From the UHGV virus genome UHGV-0133447: 28,245 nt of DNA; one strand, 5' to 3'. Source of the DNA: a virus. Positions 6,494 through 22,901 of this stretch are shown here, piece by piece. A program made the position numbers and the translations under genes. Position 1 is the first letter of the stretch, and each line of letters starts with the position of its first letter. The notes beneath the pieces were generated by a model, which ran no database searches, had not been told where the DNA came from, and saw nothing but the letters and a program-made list of their open reading frames with translations.

Positions 6494-6495
6494 GG

Positions 6496-6522
6496 CCAAA
6501 GAAAAAGCCCACCGAAGTGGGC
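6496..6522 (-). terminator. Rho-independent terminator (minus strand), back-to-back with the plus-strand one
   Basis: Minus-strand reading is GCCCAC-TTCG-GTGGGC followed by TTTTTCTTT. Confidence 0.7.
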
Positions 6523-6549
6523 CTTACAGCTATCATCATTTTTTATTAG

Positions 6550-6662
6550 GTGTGGTGCCGGGTGCCTCCCGGTAAGTCGCCGCCAGTCCACAGACGACTC
6601 GCAATGCGCAAAAAAACATATCAGACTGGCAATGCCCCTCCGCATAGGGGGATTCACCACAC
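6550..6662. ncRNA. Cloverleaf-like multi-stem element of unknown function (strand undetermined)
   Basis: Outer stem GTGTGGTG (6550-6557) with CACCACAC (6655-6662). It encloses three nested hairpins: CCGGG-TGCCT-CCCGG, GCCAGTC...GACTGGC and CCCCT-CCGCAT-AGGGG. The ORFs on the track here look spurious. Confidence 0.35.
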
Positions 6663-6744
6663 GGATAATTTAGGATGTAGTCATAGGCGGCGTCAATAAC
6701 TGACACTCTGTCAAAGGCATCATTACGATGCCTTTTGCACAGTG

Positions 6745-8033: not shown

Positions 8034-8505
8034 TGATGGATCCGCTTACTGATACGGAGCGACCAACCTAAGTTGTCGCAGATTCAAATTGTGGCCCTGC
8101 CTTTAAGTCACTTTGCGCGCAGCTGGGACATGTAGTTTTCGCATCGTGATCGGGATTCGCTTCAGACGCTGGCCCCGCAGCCATTTAAGTGCCGGTTACG
8201 TTTATCCGGCGGCTTTCGCCCGGTTAAGCCCTAAGGTAAGGGATTTGGTTGTGACACCAGGCCGTTACGCCTGCTTACTTCCTGCCGCTCTGTTTTGGTA
8301 TTGGCCGCCAGTAACTGCGACTCAGCCGATTTACAGGTCTTTGCGTCGGCCGGCGCTGCAGCCCACTTGAGCACATCACAACGGAAAGAGCGCTTAGTGC
8401 ATTTAAGCCAAACCCCATGTAGGAAGCACTCTTACCTGTTGTGCGCTCCGTTTCGTGGAGCAGACGCCGCCGGAATCGCACCGGCAGAATCATCACATTG
8501 GTATA
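8034..8505 (-). ncRNA. Untranslated structured RNA downstream of tRNA-Thr, containing a paralog of the early-left RNA module
   Basis: No credible ORF; the track ORFs overlap each other and the tRNA. Contains a T-arm/acceptor-like fragment (8456-8485), a roughly 20-bp imperfect stem (8425-8445 with 8374-8394), the sense 21-nt motif AGCGCTCTTTCCGTTGTGATG and a closed module at 8248-8382. Confidence 0.45.
8374..8394 (-). repeat. 21-nt boxA-like motif, late-operon copy (AGCGCTCTTTCCGTTGTGATG on the minus strand)
   Basis: 18 of 21 positions identical to the copy at 21904-21924 (plus strand). Both copies are in the sense orientation of their own operon. Confidence 0.6.
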
Positions 8506-8581
8506 TGGTGCTGGTTGACGGAATCGAACCGCCGACATCCTGCTTACAAGGCAGGCGCTCTACCAGCTGAGCTAAACCAGC
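8506..8581 (-). tRNA. tRNA-Thr (anticodon UGU), CCA encoded
   Basis: The reverse complement folds as a canonical cloverleaf: GCTGGTT/AACCAGC acceptor, GCTC-AGCTGGTA-GAGC D arm, CCTGC-CTTGTAA-GCAGG anticodon arm, GGCGG-TTCGATT-CCGTC T arm, and ACCA 3' end. Confidence 0.93.
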
Positions 8582-19221: not shown

Positions 19222-19773
19222 TTATTTCTCCATACACAAAGATTTATTCGCCACGACGCCCGGAGCTGCACACTCGCGGGCGTCACTCTTTTCTGGCTGA
19301 CAAAAGACACGGAACAGTAACGTTAAATGTTCCTGCCATTTCGCCATCACCTGATAGCTGTTCTCCTCAATTTGCTCGCGTTCTGCCTGGTCAATTACCC
19401 CATCAGCTGTAGCTTTACGCAGGTACTGCGAGTGTTTTCCTATCCACTCAATGGACTCCATAAGACGCTGGTTAATATCTGCGTTGTCCACGTCTTCAAT
19501 ATCTGCCAACGGAACAAAAACGCCGTTCGAGTGACGCGCTATAGCATTGGCAATATGATTTGACCCACCAGCACGCTGCAGCACCATTGCCCAGCCGAGA
19601 GGGAAAATCTGATCACCATCGGCACGTAAACGGTTAAACAATGCGTTTTCAGTAACGCCCAGCCACTCCGCAGCTTCCACGTAACCACCGTCCAGTTCGG
19701 TGATAGTCTTTTTAATCGCGGCCACCAGCCACGCCGGTTGCTTCTCTACTTTCCATTCAGGTTCTATACCCAC
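19222..19773 (-). CDS. CII-like regulatory protein (CP76/YdaT-type)
   Basis: 183 aa with a GTG start and AGGAGG 7 nt upstream. HTH-like AAEWLGVTENALFNRLR. Sits directly after the cro-like gene. Confidence 0.7.
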   Translation of the reverse strand: MGIEPEWKVEKQPAWLVAAIKKTITELDGGYVEAAEWLGVTENALFNRLRADGDQIFPLGWAMVLQRAGGSNHIANAIARHSNGVFVPLADIEDVDNADINQRLMESIEWIGKHSQYLRKATADGVIDQAEREQIEENSYQVMAKWQEHLTLLFRVFCQPEKSDARECAAPGVVANKSLCMEK

Positions 19774-20105: not shown

Positions 20106-20780
20106 ATGAAAACAATCCAGGAAATCAGGCGGTTAAACGCCAGAAAATTGCGTGATGGTGTTGGCGGTAATATTTACTTCGCCAATATGATTGATCGCGA
20201 GCCTACTCAAACCAGCCGGTTCATGGGAGATGGCGCCACTAAAAACATCGGCGATGCAATGGCAAGGCACATTGAAAAGTGTTTTGACTTACCTACTGGG
20301 TGGTTAGATCAGGAACATCAAACCACTAATGTTGCTAAAACGCCCGATGTCTCTGATACAAATAGAAATATCACCATGGTTCCGGTTATATCCTGGGTAC
20401 AAGCAGGAGCATGGACCGAAGTTGGCTATGCTGAGGTTGATTTGAATAGCACTGAAAACTATCCATGCCCTGTGCCTTGTGGGCCGATGACTTATATTCT
20501 TCGTGTTATTGGCGACTCAATGATCGACGAATATAGGCCCGGTGATATGATTTTTGTTGATCCCGAAGTTCCAGCAGTGCATGGAGATGATGTGATCGCC
20601 TTAATGCACGCTTCTGGTGAGACTACATTTAAACGGTTGATTGAAGATGCAGGACAACGCTATCTAAAAGCACTTAACTCAAATTGGCCAGAACCTTACA
20701 TCAAAATCAATGGTAATTGCTCTATCATTGGCACCGTAATTTTTTCCGGTAAACCAAGACGATACCGAACGAAAACATAA
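20106..20780 (+). CDS. cI: CI-type prophage repressor (HTH plus S24 LexA-like peptidase domain)
   Basis: 224 aa with an N-terminal HTH. VPVISWVQAGAW, GDSM and a C-terminal K-containing S24 fold pattern. Divergent from cro. Confidence 0.93.
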   Translation: MKTIQEIRRLNARKLRDGVGGNIYFANMIDREPTQTSRFMGDGATKNIGDAMARHIEKCFDLPTGWLDQEHQTTNVAKTPDVSDTNRNITMVPVISWVQAGAWTEVGYAEVDLNSTENYPCPVPCGPMTYILRVIGDSMIDEYRPGDMIFVDPEVPAVHGDDVIALMHASGETTFKRLIEDAGQRYLKALNSNWPEPYIKINGNCSIIGTVIFSGKPRRYRTKT

Positions 20781-20791
20781 CAAAGACTATT

Positions 20792-20818
20792 AAACCTGCT
20801 TCGGCGGGTTTTTTTACA
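20792..20818 (+). terminator. Rho-independent terminator after cI
   Basis: AACCTGC-TTCG-GCGGGTT followed by T-run 20809-20816. Confidence 0.8.
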
Positions 20819-20819
20819 C

Positions 20820-20862
20820 TTGACAATGTACCTCAACGGTACATAATGTACCTAAAAGAAAC
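20820..20862 (+). promoter_or_regulatory. PL-type early-left promoter with OL operator
   Basis: TTGACA 20820-25, a 16-17-nt spacer and CATAAT/ATAATG 20842-48. The spacer is itself the operator GTACCTCAACGGTAC (20828-42), the same consensus as OR. A half-site GTACC is at 20848-52. Confidence 0.7.
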
Positions 20863-20953
20863 AGCGAACAGGCAGGACGCCCACGAAGTAGCCGCCCGGG
20901 GCATATGAAGTCCGGGATGATTCGCTGACAGATAAACCAAATAGGAACAGATC

Positions 20954-21187
20954 ATGGCAAGCAAAGGCATTGAAAACCTTATCAAGGACGCATTGGCAAA
21001 CGGCTGTCATGTAGTCCGTAAAGCGCATCGCTTCGAGGTAAGCAAGAAAGGCCAAAAATCAATCACTCTTATTATTTGTGAAGATGGCACAGCTTACCGG
21101 GGAGATATTGACCTAACGATCGCCATAGCCATTCGCACTCAAAAAGAAATGCGCAGAATCCTCGGCCTGCCAGCCAAGGCAAGTTAA
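20954..21187 (+). CDS. Hypothetical 77-aa protein, first ORF of the early-left operon (N position, but no arginine-rich motif)
   Basis: ORF with an AGGAA RBS. No family recognised confidently. Confidence 0.6.
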   Translation: MASKGIENLIKDALANGCHVVRKAHRFEVSKKGQKSITLIICEDGTAYRGDIDLTIAIAIRTQKEMRRILGLPAKAS

Positions 21188-21629
21188 TTACCACAGGTGT
21201 CTTCGGGAGGGGTTGCGGAGCTGGATTGACCACCAGCAACAGAAACTCACCCGACATACAGCAGCCGTTTAGCCCACGGCGTCGGGGGTCCAGTAGACCT
21301 GGATTAATACTGTAGGGGTTGTGCCGGTTGGTCGCCGGCGCCCCGCCCGAAGATTCCTGATCGAACATGGCGAAAGCCGACAGCGTTGAAGGCGATTTTC
21401 TCGGTTTGCGCGCTAAACAATAGCGGGGGTGAAATCGGGGCGGAGAAGCAGAATCCGCGATGTCGGGACTTGATACTTCCGGCCAGACCAACAAGCCGAA
21501 TGATCGCGTAACGGTCCTTTGCATCTGCCCCGGCGAGGTGGCGCCGCCGGACCGGGGCAGATGAATCGTACACAACATGAAAGCGCATTCCATCTTCATC
21601 CGTCGTGGGGACTGGTTTGTAACTGAAGG

Positions 21630-21650
21630 AGTGCGCTTCCAGTTGTGAAC
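21630..21650 (+). repeat. 21-nt boxA-like motif, degenerate copy 0 (AGTGCGCTTCCAGTTGTGAAC)
   Basis: 14 of 19 core positions match copy 1. Lies 274 nt upstream of copy 1. Confidence 0.4.
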
Positions 21651-21903
21651 GGCAATATTCACGACCGTTGTATGGCACATGCAGCGTTAGCAGCCCGGAT
21701 GGTTCCCTTGAAGTTCCATGCGCTATCCGGACAACTGGAATGTGCAAGCCAAGTGTTTCAGGCACGACGTGCGCCCCACCAGCGCGGCGAAAAGGTGTGA
21801 CCCCCGGGAAGAGTCCGGGACACAACAGGAAAGAGTACTGAAGATGCCAGGAAACGCCCTACCGCCAGGCAGATAGACGGGTTATCCCGCAAGGGGTGGC
21901 GGC

Positions 21904-21924
21904 AGTGCTCTTACCGTTGTGGTG
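21904..21924 (+). repeat. 21-nt boxA-like motif, copy 1 (AGTGCTCTTACCGTTGTGGTG)
   Basis: Contains TGCTCTTA (compare lambda nut boxA CGCTCTTA and rrn boxA TGCTCTTTAACAA), followed by GT-rich GTTGTGGTG, which is also the 5' acceptor-like strand of module 1. Confidence 0.6.
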
Positions 21925-22042
21925 TAGCTCAAATGGATAGAGCGCCCCTTATGTGGGGAGTTGAGCACTAACCAATGTTCGCAACACAGGTTATCTCATG
22001 CGGCCGGCCGGACGTTATGCGGGTTCAAATCCCGTCACCACA
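21918..22042 (+). ncRNA. tRNA-like module 1 (canonical acceptor, D arm and T arm; non-canonical anticodon region with a 60-nt insertion)
   Basis: TGTGGTG (21918-24) pairs with CACCACA (22036-42). The D arm is TA-GCTC-AAATGGATA-GAGC and the T arm GCGGG-TTCAAAT-CCCGT (22019-35). The anticodon position has only CCCC-TTATGT-GGGG (a 6-nt loop) plus extra hairpins. No 3' CCA. Confidence 0.5.
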
Positions 22043-22081
22043 GCGCACAACGATGAGGGCATTGACGAGCAAGGCACAGAG

Positions 22082-22162
22082 TCTGGTTCGATTCCAGACG
22101 CCAGGATAGCTCTATATCTGGTGATGGGCAGGGAAAAGGTCCGTTCGATTCGGACACCGGCA
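22082..22162 (+). ncRNA. Two T-arm/acceptor-like minihelix fragments and a truncated tRNA-like unit
   Basis: TCTGG-TTCGATT-CCAGA (22082-98) and GTCCG-TTCGATT-CGGAC (22139-55) both have canonical T-loops. A D-arm-like TAGCTC lies at 22107-12. No complete cloverleaf can be drawn. Confidence 0.45.
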
Positions 22163-22182
22163 GTGCTCTCTTCGTTGTGGTA
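22162..22182 (+). repeat. 21-nt boxA-like motif, copy 2 (AGTGCTCTCTTCGTTGTGGTA)
   Basis: Shares GGCAGTGCTCT...CGTTGTGGT with copy 1. GTTGTGG (22174-80) pairs with CCACAAC (22287-93) after hairpin GGTGG-AGGCA-CCACC. Confidence 0.55.
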
Positions 22183-22320
22183 ATTGCGGCTATGCGCACG
22201 TGACGAGCCAACCCGTTCATGGAATGCGTTTCCGGGCAGTGTACGTCGCCGGTTATGGCTTAACCCGGCAGGTGGAGGCACCACCGCCACAACCTAGTTA
22301 ACTGTGCTGTGTGTAGTCTT

Positions 22321-22390
22321 GGCGGTTATCCAGTTTTCCACTATCCAAAGGAGGAAGAGGATAACGTTCTGATGGATAACCGCCCTTTTT
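22321..22390 (+). terminator. Long-loop hairpin plus T-tract (terminator/attenuator-like) inside the untranslated region
   Basis: GGCGGTTATCCA (22321-32) pairs with TGGATAACCGCC (22373-84), followed by CTTTTT (22385-90). The 40-nt loop contains AAGGAGGAAGAGGA and the ATG at 22372. Confidence 0.4.
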
Positions 22391-22533
22391 ACACAATACA
22401 AAAGAGCATCACCGGGCGACGGGCTCATTACCCAATCCACCCGGGCGGCGTCCTAACCGCAGGTGCTCTTCTGTGTTGTGTACGGAGAAATTCCCGGCGG
22501 TGGCAGCCGCCTTTCGAGAGGGTAAAACCATGA
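22372..22533 (+). CDS. Possible 53-aa leader ORF (uncertain), stop overlapping the next gene start (ATGA)
   Basis: MDNRPFYTIQKSITGRRAHYPIHPGG... with GAGGA about 10 nt upstream. It lies entirely over strongly paired RNA, so coding is doubtful. Confidence 0.25.
   Translation: MDNRPFYTIQKSITGRRAHYPIHPGGVLTAGALLCCVRRNSRRWQPPFERVKP
22462..22482 (+). repeat. 21-nt boxA-like motif, copy 3 (GGTGCTCTTCTGTGTTGTGTA), 3' arm of a roughly 21-bp stem
   Basis: Pairs with TACACAATACAAAAGAGCATC (22390-22410), with 18 Watson-Crick pairs, 2 G.U pairs and 1 mismatch. Lies 48 nt upstream of the next gene start. Confidence 0.55.
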
Positions 22534-22901
22534 GTAATGATCGCATGACAGTAGTGCCCGATTTCCTGGGTGAACTGGACGCCGGCGTATTCATGAACAA
22601 GATTGCGGCGGCTCTTAATACCACCGCGCTCGGCGTTCTGAACAACGGCAACAAAGGCAAGGTTGTCCTCACCTTTGATTTTGAGCGTATGGGCAACTCT
22701 GTTGAAGAGAAGCGCGTCAAGATTAAGCACAAGCTGAACTACAGCACCCCAACTCCCCGCGGCAAAGCGTCGGAGGAGGACACCACCGAAACACCAATGT
22801 GGGTTAACAAAGGTGGCAAGCTCACAATCCTGCAGGAGGATCAGGGGCAACTCTTCGGTATCACCGGCGCGGTGGACGGAAAGCTTAAAGCGGCTCAGTG
22901 A
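22530..22901 (+). CDS. Hypothetical early protein (YfdP-like position upstream of YfdQ/YfdR homologs)
   Basis: The ATG at 22530 with a GAGAGGG RBS is preferred over the track start at 22473. 123 aa. Family not recognised with certainty. Confidence 0.7.
   Translation: MSNDRMTVVPDFLGELDAGVFMNKIAAALNTTALGVLNNGNKGKVVLTFDFERMGNSVEEKRVKIKHKLNYSTPTPRGKASEEDTTETPMWVNKGGKLTILQEDQGQLFGITGAVDGKLKAAQ

Follow-up and report, generated by a model that had tools for sequence, protein, structure and literature searches.

A conserved phage RNA family with a tRNA body and an insert in place of the anticodon arm

Introduction

Several RNAs that take up parts of the transfer RNA (tRNA) fold, or that come from comparable phages, are the closest described relatives, in form or in setting, of the element considered here. 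This element is a tRNA-like RNA found at positions 21916-22045 (plus strand) of the virus genome UHGV-0133447, a stretch of 28,245 nucleotides (nt) that is called the window below. The family to which it belongs is previously undescribed: Rfam 15 contains no specific family for it, and literature searches turned up no description, the Pas-sRNA preprint and the mEpimmI paper having no bearing on it. Among the known systems, the synthetic tRNA scaffold RNAs of Ponchon and Dardel are those in which a foreign RNA replaces the anticodon arm and the acceptor, D and T arms stay in place, and E. coli is said to process and stabilise the resulting chimera like a tRNA. The C4 RNA of P1/P7 (RF01695) acts through its hairpin loops. 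The stable RNAs C and D (species 1 and 2) of phage T4, of about 120-140 nt, are co-transcribed and processed with the phage tRNAs, and no function has been assigned to them. The tRNA-like domain of transfer-messenger RNA (tmRNA) has no D stem, carries a G3-U70 pair and is connected by a long helix P2 to the tag frame. Finally, YrlA, a Y RNA, mimics the D arm, T arm and acceptor of tRNA and is modified by tRNA enzymes, and some of its members are cut by RNase P and given CCA; it is circularly permuted (T-AS-D) with a closed 'acceptor' stem-loop, its two ends pair on the anticodon side into the stem that binds Ro/Rsr, and its gene adjoins rsr (Chen et al., 2014; PMC4201824).

The RNA of the window can be told apart from each of these. 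In contrast to YrlA, its order is acceptor 5′ strand, D arm, insert, T arm and acceptor 3′ strand, with the ends at the acceptor, and neither a YrlA model match (Rfam, 20700-22600) nor an rsr neighbour was found, the neighbouring genes being cI-like, yfdP/Q/R-like and ParB-like. Unlike the tmRNA domain, it has a D stem that covaries, no G3-U70 pair and an arm capped by a loop; no tmRNA match was obtained with Rfam in the same region. C4 is likewise a small RNA of temperate enterobacterial phages and phage-plasmids with a long terminal closing stem, but it has no D/T-arm elbow, and its targets are known (the a/b sites upstream of ant). The RNAs C and D belong to a virulent phage. Synthetic tRNA scaffolds are engineered, whereas this RNA is natural, conserved and phage-borne, with a presumed processing. 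With canonical and class II tRNAs it has in common the acceptor, U8, a D arm with G18G19, a UUCRAnU T arm, A15/U48, a hairpin (H6) at the site of the variable arm and a loop with U33 and A37; it departs from them in its length, a tetraloop-type hairpin (Px) at the anticodon stem, the placement of the loop on an extra arm of about 13 helical layers, a 9-base-pair (bp) acceptor (9/5) and the lack of CCA.

Fold of the tRNA-Like RNA

The Rfam tRNA model RF00005 matches 21918-22043 (+) with 40.0 bits (gathering score 29; E 2.5e-5 for the whole window). In this alignment the acceptor, D and T arms are aligned and 68 nt, referred to as the payload, replace 15 model positions of the anticodon arm. The parts of the RNA are the following:

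21916-22045 (+): tRNA-like RNA, family member according to the covariance model R1 (146 bits)
21945-21958 (+): Px hairpin CCCC-UUAUGU-GGGG, in the anticodon-stem position right after G26
21962-21998 (+): long bulged arm, with H4 (UGAG/CUCA), H5 (UAACC/GGUUA), then A.A and A.C mismatches, then 2 bp
21978-21984 (+): apical loop UUCGCAA (7 nt), anticodon-like in that U33 and A37 are in register
22000-22015 (+): H6 hairpin with a GGCC loop (CCGGCCGG core), like a class II tRNA variable arm
22019-22035 (+): T arm GCGGG-UUCAAAU-CCCGU

The body of a canonical tRNA is complete, with its acceptor, D and T arms and elbow nucleotides, and all three arms covary. The acceptor stem UGUGGUG/CACCACA (21918-24/22036-42) can be extended to 9 bp (21916-24/22036-44), the D arm GCUC-AAAUGGAUA-GAGC (21927-43) contains the GG dinucleotide, and the sequence has U8, A9 and, at position 26, a G. 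A preliminary description of this DNA, made by eye, had already recognised the 7-bp acceptor, the D arm with GG and the TTCAAAT T arm at these places. It had also pointed out a 4-bp stem with a 6-nt loop in the anticodon position followed by extra hairpins, which are now seen to be Px, the long arm and the GGCC hairpin, and it had correctly read the 3′ end (G-CGC) as encoding no CCA.

The anticodon region is where the RNA leaves the canonical plan. From position 27 there is a hairpin of 4-5 bp with a loop of 4-6 nt (the stem has 4 bp in the window and 5 bp in most relatives, and the loop is variable), and the 7-nt loop stands on a separate arm. Since U33 and A37 are in register in this loop, an anticodon-like loop does exist, although displaced to the far end of an arm that counts about 13 layers; the preliminary description had overlooked it. 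The RNA is 126-130 nt long, outside the canonical range of about 73-93 nt, and it can be described as a tRNA in which a payload takes the place of the anticodon arm and the rest is intact. The single-sequence minimum free energy (MFE) structure is this same fold (z -1.97), which is also recovered when the entire 941-nt leader is folded (z -4.8).

Searches with Rfam, at gathering thresholds for the window and up to E 10 for the region, returned the generic tRNA model only, with no YrlA, C4, tmRNA or put-like matches; in 20700-22600 it is the sole match better than E 0.9, and the DicF, isrK and rsmX matches are weak and below threshold. ARAGORN, a check proposed in the preliminary description, called only the tRNA-Thr at 8506-8581 (-) in the window, not the tRNA-like RNA, and called none of the 40-odd family copies tested (window and loci).

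A Family under Selection for RNA Structure

Members of the family were collected by BLAST, by pattern scans of IMG/VR, of JGI metagenomes and of one genome per species, and then with the covariance model R1; in total there are 53 copies, among which 43 sequences are distinct, and six or more genera are represented. The carriers are prophages of Klebsiella and Raoultella (one prophage in the latter) and phage-plasmids of E. coli and of Enterobacter, Citrobacter and Serratia (five plasmids of 47-99 kb in these three genera). BLAST found the element, with its insert, in plasmid unnamed5 of E. coli CH468, a P1/D6-like phage-plasmid, and also, unannotated, in Cronobacter phage JK004. The CH468 copy (L004, 4003-4131) is annotated in RefSeq by the Prokaryotic Genome Annotation Pipeline (PGAP) as a 129-nt tRNA-Met; all other database copies examined are unannotated. 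Only 1 of 5,426 complete E. coli genomes carries the element. The scan of one genome per species gave three matches, of which the Raoultella ornithinolytica prophage is the only real one, those in L040 and L042 being due to chance; L046 and L050 were likewise discarded as an identical chance match in a coding region.

All seven helices are kept in the 43 distinct homologues. In the model-based alignment of these sequences (A8), the paired share of cells is 96.0%, compared with 37-49% when the partners are slid, and compensatory changes are found in 20 of the 40 pairs; the observed values were reached by none of 500 shuffles. A MAFFT alignment (A2) also has 96.0% of cells paired, with compensatory changes in 12 pairs. 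Double changes occur in every helix but H4, which varies only by one G-U wobble (L085). The T arm has three compensated pairs and 100% of cells paired, H5 has compensatory changes in four pairs and Px in three, and pair 93/98 of H6 alternates between C-G and U-A, 22 to 20. The acceptor stem, which covaries over 9 bp across the family, is compensated in L085 (GAUGUG/CACAUC), and in the lineage of L044 and L047 it consists of unrelated sequence (UGGGUACCG/CGGUGCCCA), together with a D stem GUUC/GAAC, with all pairing kept. The nucleotides expected to make tertiary contacts (U8, A14, G18G19, U54-U55-C56-R57-A58 and A15/U48) are kept as well. The comparison of homologues suggested in the preliminary description thus places the acceptor, D and T elements under selection.

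For the anticodon region, that description had proposed to look for drift. The insert is the best conserved part of the RNA, lesions are not scattered, and the length of the long arm is fixed across the family except for a single 1-nt deletion. The junctions (AGU/AGG, UAUCUCAUGCGG and GACGUUAU) are nearly constant, and free variation is seen in the Px loop and in parts of the D loop. As all four columns of the Px loop vary, enough time has passed for positions free of constraint to diverge. The strings at the junctions belonged to the search patterns, and two scans were therefore made with patterns that left the junctions free and H4 unconstrained: H4 and its flanks are conserved in nine further members, the only changes being AGU to AGG and single changes in L085.

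The apical loop reads NUCAUAA in about five-sixths of the distinct sequences and UUCGCAA in the rest, including the window. U33, C34, A37 and A38 are invariant and positions 35-36 are AU or GC, so that CAU and CGC are the only triplets (the loops were listed for 29 to 34 distinct sequences, and nine later members all have NUCAUAA). Inspection of alignments A4 and A8 revealed no column, be it within the RNA or in its flanks, that changes together with this switch. The idea of a tRNA that keeps its elbow and acceptor and loses its decoding features accordingly needs to be amended: the body is kept, but an anticodon-like loop is kept too, on the tip of the long arm.

In nearly every member the core of H6 is a palindrome of 8 nt (CCGGCCGG, CUGGCCAG, or CCAGCUGG in L013 and L084); it is broken in L045 (CUGGCUAG) and L082 (CUGGCCGG). 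These palindromes prompted the idea of a kissing dimer, which was dropped because the central palindrome is broken in L045.

Taken as a whole, purifying selection acts on the element as a structured RNA, and it is not a decaying tRNA gene; that the family is functional can be regarded as practically certain. A decaying pseudogene or a chance likeness, in whose favour stand the negative ARAGORN result, the missing CCA and a dispensable cassette, is refuted by the Rfam E value, by the helices kept in all 43 distinct copies with their 20 compensated pairs and by an insert that is the best conserved part, in line with the preference for function over random decay in the preliminary description.

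The Leader as an Array of RNA Units

The window is, by its gene content, a lambdoid prophage, and its closest relative is the Klebsiella phage Kp4866-6 (99% identity). The minus strand carries replication genes, a Q-type antiterminator, a DNA methyltransferase and further late-side genes, as far as a cII-like gene (19222-19773). The tRNA-like RNA lies on the plus strand in a leader of about 1.3 kb (21190-22526) in which no credible open reading frame (ORF) was found; an ORF of 202 amino acids on the opposite strand (21072-21680, -) has no family match and an odd composition, and is probably spurious. The gap between repressor and yfdP is likewise unannotated in E. coli relatives (IAI39 and Stx2a phages). 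The genes and signals of this part of the prophage are:

20106-20780 (+): cI/LexA-type repressor gene, followed by a terminator at about 20795-20815
20820-20847 (+): candidate early-left promoter (pL-like), TTGACA-16-CATAAT, matching 11 of 12 consensus positions and overlapped by operator-like repeats
20954-21187 (+): 77-amino-acid ORF, the first after the promoter (phrog_12911, function not assigned)
from about 22527: yfdP/yfdQ/yfdR-like early-left genes, with ATG 22527 as the likely start of the yfdP-like gene

The early-left role of 20820-20847 is inferred from these sequence features, and the promoter is treated here as a candidate; a near-identical promoter and operator sequence stands at the equivalent place in E. 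coli IAI39. No ORF of at least 70 amino acids is found in L018 and L044 at the position of the 77-amino-acid ORF.

Between these genes, the leader is built of RNA units separated by four hairpins of one stem design (S1 to S4), in which CACAAC..GAAAGNGCA is paired with UGCNCUU..GUUGUG over about 20 bp. All four fold far better than shuffled sequences (z -2.9 to -5.5). Apart from the tRNA-like RNA and the S3 domain described below, the units are:

21567-21651 (+): spacer hairpin S1, 5′ strand CACAAC..GAAAGCGCA, 3′ strand UGCGCUUCC..GUUGUG (MFE -37.2 kcal/mol, z -4.9)
21650-21819 (+): conserved unit of about 170 nt between S1 and S2, without Rfam match
21821-21921 (+): spacer hairpin S2, stem of about 20 bp (z -2.9)
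21827-22045 (+): optional cassette formed by S2 and the tRNA-like RNA, precisely absent from two relatives
22174-22293 (+): structured module closed by GUUGUGG/CCACAAC
22303-22390 (+): sRNA-like segment (sRNA, small RNA), with a terminator hairpin and U run at its end
22390-22482 (+): spacer hairpin S4, just before the yfdP-like gene (z -5.5)

The last 6 nt of S2 (GUUGUG, 21916-21921) double as the outer 5′ acceptor strand of the tRNA-like RNA. The unit at 21650-21819 is 81-99% identical in many loci and partly present in the IAI39 leader. A boxA-like UGCUCUU or UGCGCUU is found in the 3′ strand of each spacer (21632-21638, 21906-21913, 22164-22170 and 22465-22471), and no N-like gene was found in the leader. 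The integron attC sites were considered as an analogy for the spacers (CACAAC/GUUGUG resembling RYYYAAC/GTTRRRY) and rejected, there being no integron integrase and the indel junction lying in CACAAC instead of G/TT.

The units behave as exchangeable cassettes whose order differs between phages. In Kp4866-6 (L076), whose flanks are 98-99.6% identical, the segments 21570-21826 and 22046-22900 abut and share 6 nt; 21827-22045 is likewise missing, at the same junction, from the E. coli F5 prophage (L003). This junction falls inside the repeated CACAAC, and the phages without the cassette retain the same downstream genes. The absence of the cassette from these two relatives makes the tRNA-like RNA an accessory feature and excludes an essential role in cis. 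In related loci the adjoining unit of the same strand is a genuine tRNA, namely Arg-UCU (L018, L024 and L036) or, in P1/D6-like elements, Ile2/Met-CAU. One P1/D6-like plasmid has this very system of units, and in P1-like elements the tRNA-like RNA lies within a tRNA cluster. Relatives with intact tRNAs at the very position of the element, which the preliminary description had thought could speak for decay, did not turn up: the tRNA-Arg lies 70-75 nt downstream, beside a tRNA-like RNA that has its usual conserved form, and in L018 the two are separated by S1.

That leaders of this type are transcribed follows from sRNA-17 of E. coli K1 RS218, a 193-nt RNA mapped by rapid amplification of cDNA ends (RACE) and Northern blot, the deletion of which raised yfdP about 95-fold (PMC7719688). 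When its sequence is located in IAI39, sRNA-17 starts with GTTGTGGTGAATGCGCAGGC (at GUUGUGG) at the base directly after the equivalent of S3, with the leader terminator 193 nt on. The leader is of the same repressor-to-yfdP type, and sRNA-17 begins at the GUUGUG border after S3; its mapping thus indicates RNAs with 5′ ends at unit borders, and the rise of yfdP fits the loss of the leader terminator. It should be stressed that sRNA-17 is a different unit, namely module 2 plus a terminator-ended sRNA, and not the tRNA-like RNA. Its positional equivalent in the window is 22174-22390, which scores low with the DicF model (16.5 bits; gathering score 48). In that segment a single-stranded stretch, GCUGUGUGUAGUCUU, recurs in L004, L012, L013, L030 and L044.

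The S3 Domain and Other T-Arm-Like Hairpins

Directly downstream of the tRNA-like RNA lies a second structured element, S3:

22046-22179 (+): S3 domain, 134 nt, a 22-bp stem (22046-67/22158-79) closing three hairpins
22081-22099 (+): S3 hp1, 6-bp stem, T-loop at 22087-93
22101-22121 (+): S3 hp2, free in sequence, with pairing kept by unrelated sequences
22139-22155 (+): S3 hp3, 5-bp stem, T-loop at 22144-50

In seven homologous sequences, 90.1% of the cells are paired (slid controls, 38-55%) and compensatory changes affect 9 of 39 pairs, with an MFE z of -4.6; homologues are 78-99% identical. An MFE alternative for hp1 was set aside, given that it is not conserved across homologues and the T-arm pairing is. 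The position of S3 is not tied to the tRNA-like RNA, since it lies upstream of it in L018, downstream in the window, and without it in IAI39, Stx2a phages and E. coli F5. The two further T-loops reported in the preliminary description are therefore real, though on stems of 6 and 5 bp, not 5 bp both. What had been taken for their acceptor-like 3′ strands has another assignment: the strand after 22155 is the 3′ strand of the 22-bp stem, and that after 22099 is the 5′ strand of the next hairpin. As S3 is one autonomous domain, two of its three hairpins are not orphan T-arm/acceptor minihelices of broken tRNAs.

A further fragment mentioned in that description was found in the late region:

8469-8485 (-): T-arm-like hairpin GCCGG-UGCGAUU-CCGGC, 20 nt after the genuine tRNA-Thr(UGU) at 8506-8581, with a loop one position away from a T-loop

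S-type hairpins delimit RNA units in the late region too. One such spacer (8377-8444, -) follows the tRNA-Thr, the T-arm-like hairpin and a small hairpin; after it comes a unit of about 135 nt (in 8247-8444, -) closed by GUUGUGA/UCACAAC, whose 5′ part is D-arm-like (UGCUCAAGUGGGCUGCAGC) and in which no T arm and no model match were found. In E. coli 55989 (L048, NC_011748.1), the Q-to-holin leader is built of the same spacer hairpins (about 2318-2376 and 2523-2653). One unit there contains a tmRNA-tag-like frame, GCA AAC GAU GAU GUU GUU CUG AUG GCG GCG UAA UAG (ANDDVVLMAA; tmRNA_permuted 26 bits, E 0.003), and the next is a second type of tRNA-like RNA, of 131 nt, ending in GCCGG-UUCGAUU-CCGGC (R1 31 bits; tmRNA 3′ end E 5e-6). 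A total of 137 E. coli records matched the BLAST query, most of them (55989 included) through a 38-nt stretch that covers the 3′ strand of S2 and the very start of the tRNA-like RNA. The prophage sRNA STnc100, which has been related to the PasD sRNAs in a 2026 preprint, has a full-length match at 6494-6691 (-) of the window (100.7 bits), in the interval that separates the lysis genes from the Q-type antiterminator side.

Function and Alternative Explanations

On balance, the best overall explanation is that of a non-decoding RNA on a natural tRNA scaffold, carried in the array of an early-left leader. The unit would be excised from the leader at the spacer hairpins, where RNase III may cut, by RNase P, or in both ways; the enzymes that process the ends of tRNAs and modify them may then accept it, giving a stable RNA of about 130 nt. 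In such a molecule the 68-nt payload would be the working part and the tRNA body would serve its excision, end maturation, modification and stability. The separate parts of this proposal deserve different degrees of trust. That the RNA does not decode is very likely: the loop stands on an arm of about 13 layers, Px occupies the anticodon-stem site, no CCA is encoded and the alanine identity pair is missing. By estimate, the anticodon-like loop lies some 8-9 helical layers (about 25 Å) too far from the elbow to read codons. By analogy, the tRNA body probably works as a scaffold. The most speculative step is that payload or elbow would titrate a tRNA-recognising factor of the host or of a rival, for example a tRNA-targeting defence nuclease or a tRNA-modifying toxin. 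A decoy or sponge is the accessory role favoured here, as the cassette is optional, presumably expressed early, and tRNA-shaped; even so, it should be taken as a tentative and rather doubtful suggestion. Candidate targets named in the preliminary description are RNase P/Z, the CCA-adding enzyme, EF-Tu and, for a decoy, a nuclease. In CAU-type members, the apical hairpin (GG-NUCAUAA-CC) presumably resembles the anticodon stem-loop of the initiator tRNA, which offers a lead. A broader extension, which must be called unlikely, sees a mobile system of RNA-gene cassettes across temperate enterobacterial phages and phage-plasmids, with the tRNA-shaped RNA as a dedicated anti-defence decoy. Units delimited by hairpins of about 20 bp (tRNAs, the tRNA-scaffolded RNA, the double-T-loop domain, sRNAs and possibly tmRNA-like pieces) would be swapped among early leaders, late leaders and plasmid prophages, and the decoy, with elbow and acceptor kept, would show its anticodon-like loop to an immune nuclease or toxin while being unusable in translation.

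Several points weigh against the scaffold explanation. The mean column identity of the family is 87% and the family is young, so that part of the conservation reflects recent ancestry; the exact-match patterns used in the collection inflate the invariance of the pattern segments, for which the free-pattern scans control only partly; and alignment A8 was fitted to the structure of the model itself. Expression, processing and modification of the RNA are predictions, and a leader and trailer that are fully paired (9-bp stem, no CCA) should be cleaved less well by RNase P than those of an ordinary pre-tRNA. The cassette is dispensable and could be nearly neutral cargo, and the prophages with sRNA-17 (RS218-type leaders) do without it. 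The evidence points to no specific binding partner. To our knowledge, the CGC variant in the window matches no enterobacterial tRNA anticodon, which weakens the mimicry of one particular tRNA.

The payload could instead act by base pairing, as an antisense or kissing-loop regulator carried on a tRNA-like body, comparable to C4 and matured by RNase P or RNase III, whose apical U-turn loop would pair with a phage or host RNA. C4 is itself processed by RNase P, and long bulged stems with U-turn loops are typical of antisense RNAs, so that the long bulged arm with its 7-nt loop, its invariant U33 and its YUNR-type sequence (UUCG, UUCA, CUCA) would suit this function. The existence of just two loop versions would fit co-evolution with a target, the family occurs in lambdoid as well as P1/D6-like elements, and a related Stx phage locus has a C4 and an isrK match. 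Nevertheless, the apical loop has no complementary site above chance in the 28-kb window (a 7-nt seed is not reliably searchable), the CAU/CGC switch is accompanied by no other column, and Rfam gives no C4 match in the window, so such a regulator seems improbable.

A simpler role would be that of punctuation acting in cis, the fold only directing RNase P/Z cleavage of the leader and the excised RNA being functionless. Plant mitochondrial t-elements and mascRNA are examples of tRNA-like elements used as processing signals elsewhere; here, the element sits in an array of units, and sRNA-17 has its 5′ end at a unit border. Such a role needs an acceptor and a T arm only and leaves unexplained a payload of fixed length with covarying helices and near-invariant junctions. 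Moreover, the spacer hairpins already supply punctuation, and two relatives, one of them near-identical, do without the cassette. Only a slight chance is given to this explanation.

A genuine tRNA with an odd insertion, mostly of Met/Ile2 type (CAU) and reading Ala codons with CGC in the window, would account for the complete body, for U33 and A37 in the loop and for the tRNA-Met call by PGAP in CH468, and genuine CAU tRNAs do adjoin the element in P1-like elements. The geometry speaks against it, given the estimated displacement of the loop, an arm of about 13 layers where a 5-bp stem would be expected, and the second hairpin in the anticodon-stem site, and so do the ARAGORN results and the lack of CCA. 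G3-U70 is the alanine identity pair and would be needed for the CGC form, but the sequence does not contain it; we know of no bacterial splicing system that removes such inserts. A decoding function is thus quite improbable.

A further alternative is a feature that works at the level of DNA or transcription, either a site of cassette recombination or attachment or a put-like or boxA-like antitermination RNA for a leader without N. No N-like gene is present, a boxA-like UGCUCUU recurs in every spacer 3′ strand, cassettes are gained and lost at the repeated CACAAC, and a terminator precedes yfdP (PMC7719688). The compensatory changes, however, argue for RNA pairing. The boxA-like segments are buried in stable 20-bp stems whose partner strand is transcribed first, for which reason boxA/Nus antitermination is kept as a minor alternative only. 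The phages without the cassette keep the same downstream genes, and in P1-like elements the RNA belongs to a tRNA cluster and does not follow a repressor-controlled promoter. This explanation is very improbable.

Implications

Phage tRNAs are now thought to act partly as countermeasures to tRNA-cleaving defences. If it is non-decoding, a conserved phage RNA with a tRNA body would offer a clean test of phage tRNA mimics as decoys or scaffolds, and a direct comparison is at hand in two near-identical phages of which only one has the cassette. The family would be a natural instance of the tRNA-scaffold trick used for recombinant RNA expression. Since annotation pipelines miss these genes or call them tRNA-Met, the covariance model is worth adding to RNA family databases. 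More generally, the spacers, the double-T-loop domain and the sRNA-17-type unit illustrate how densely RNA genes can fill a long, seemingly "empty" gap behind a phage repressor gene.

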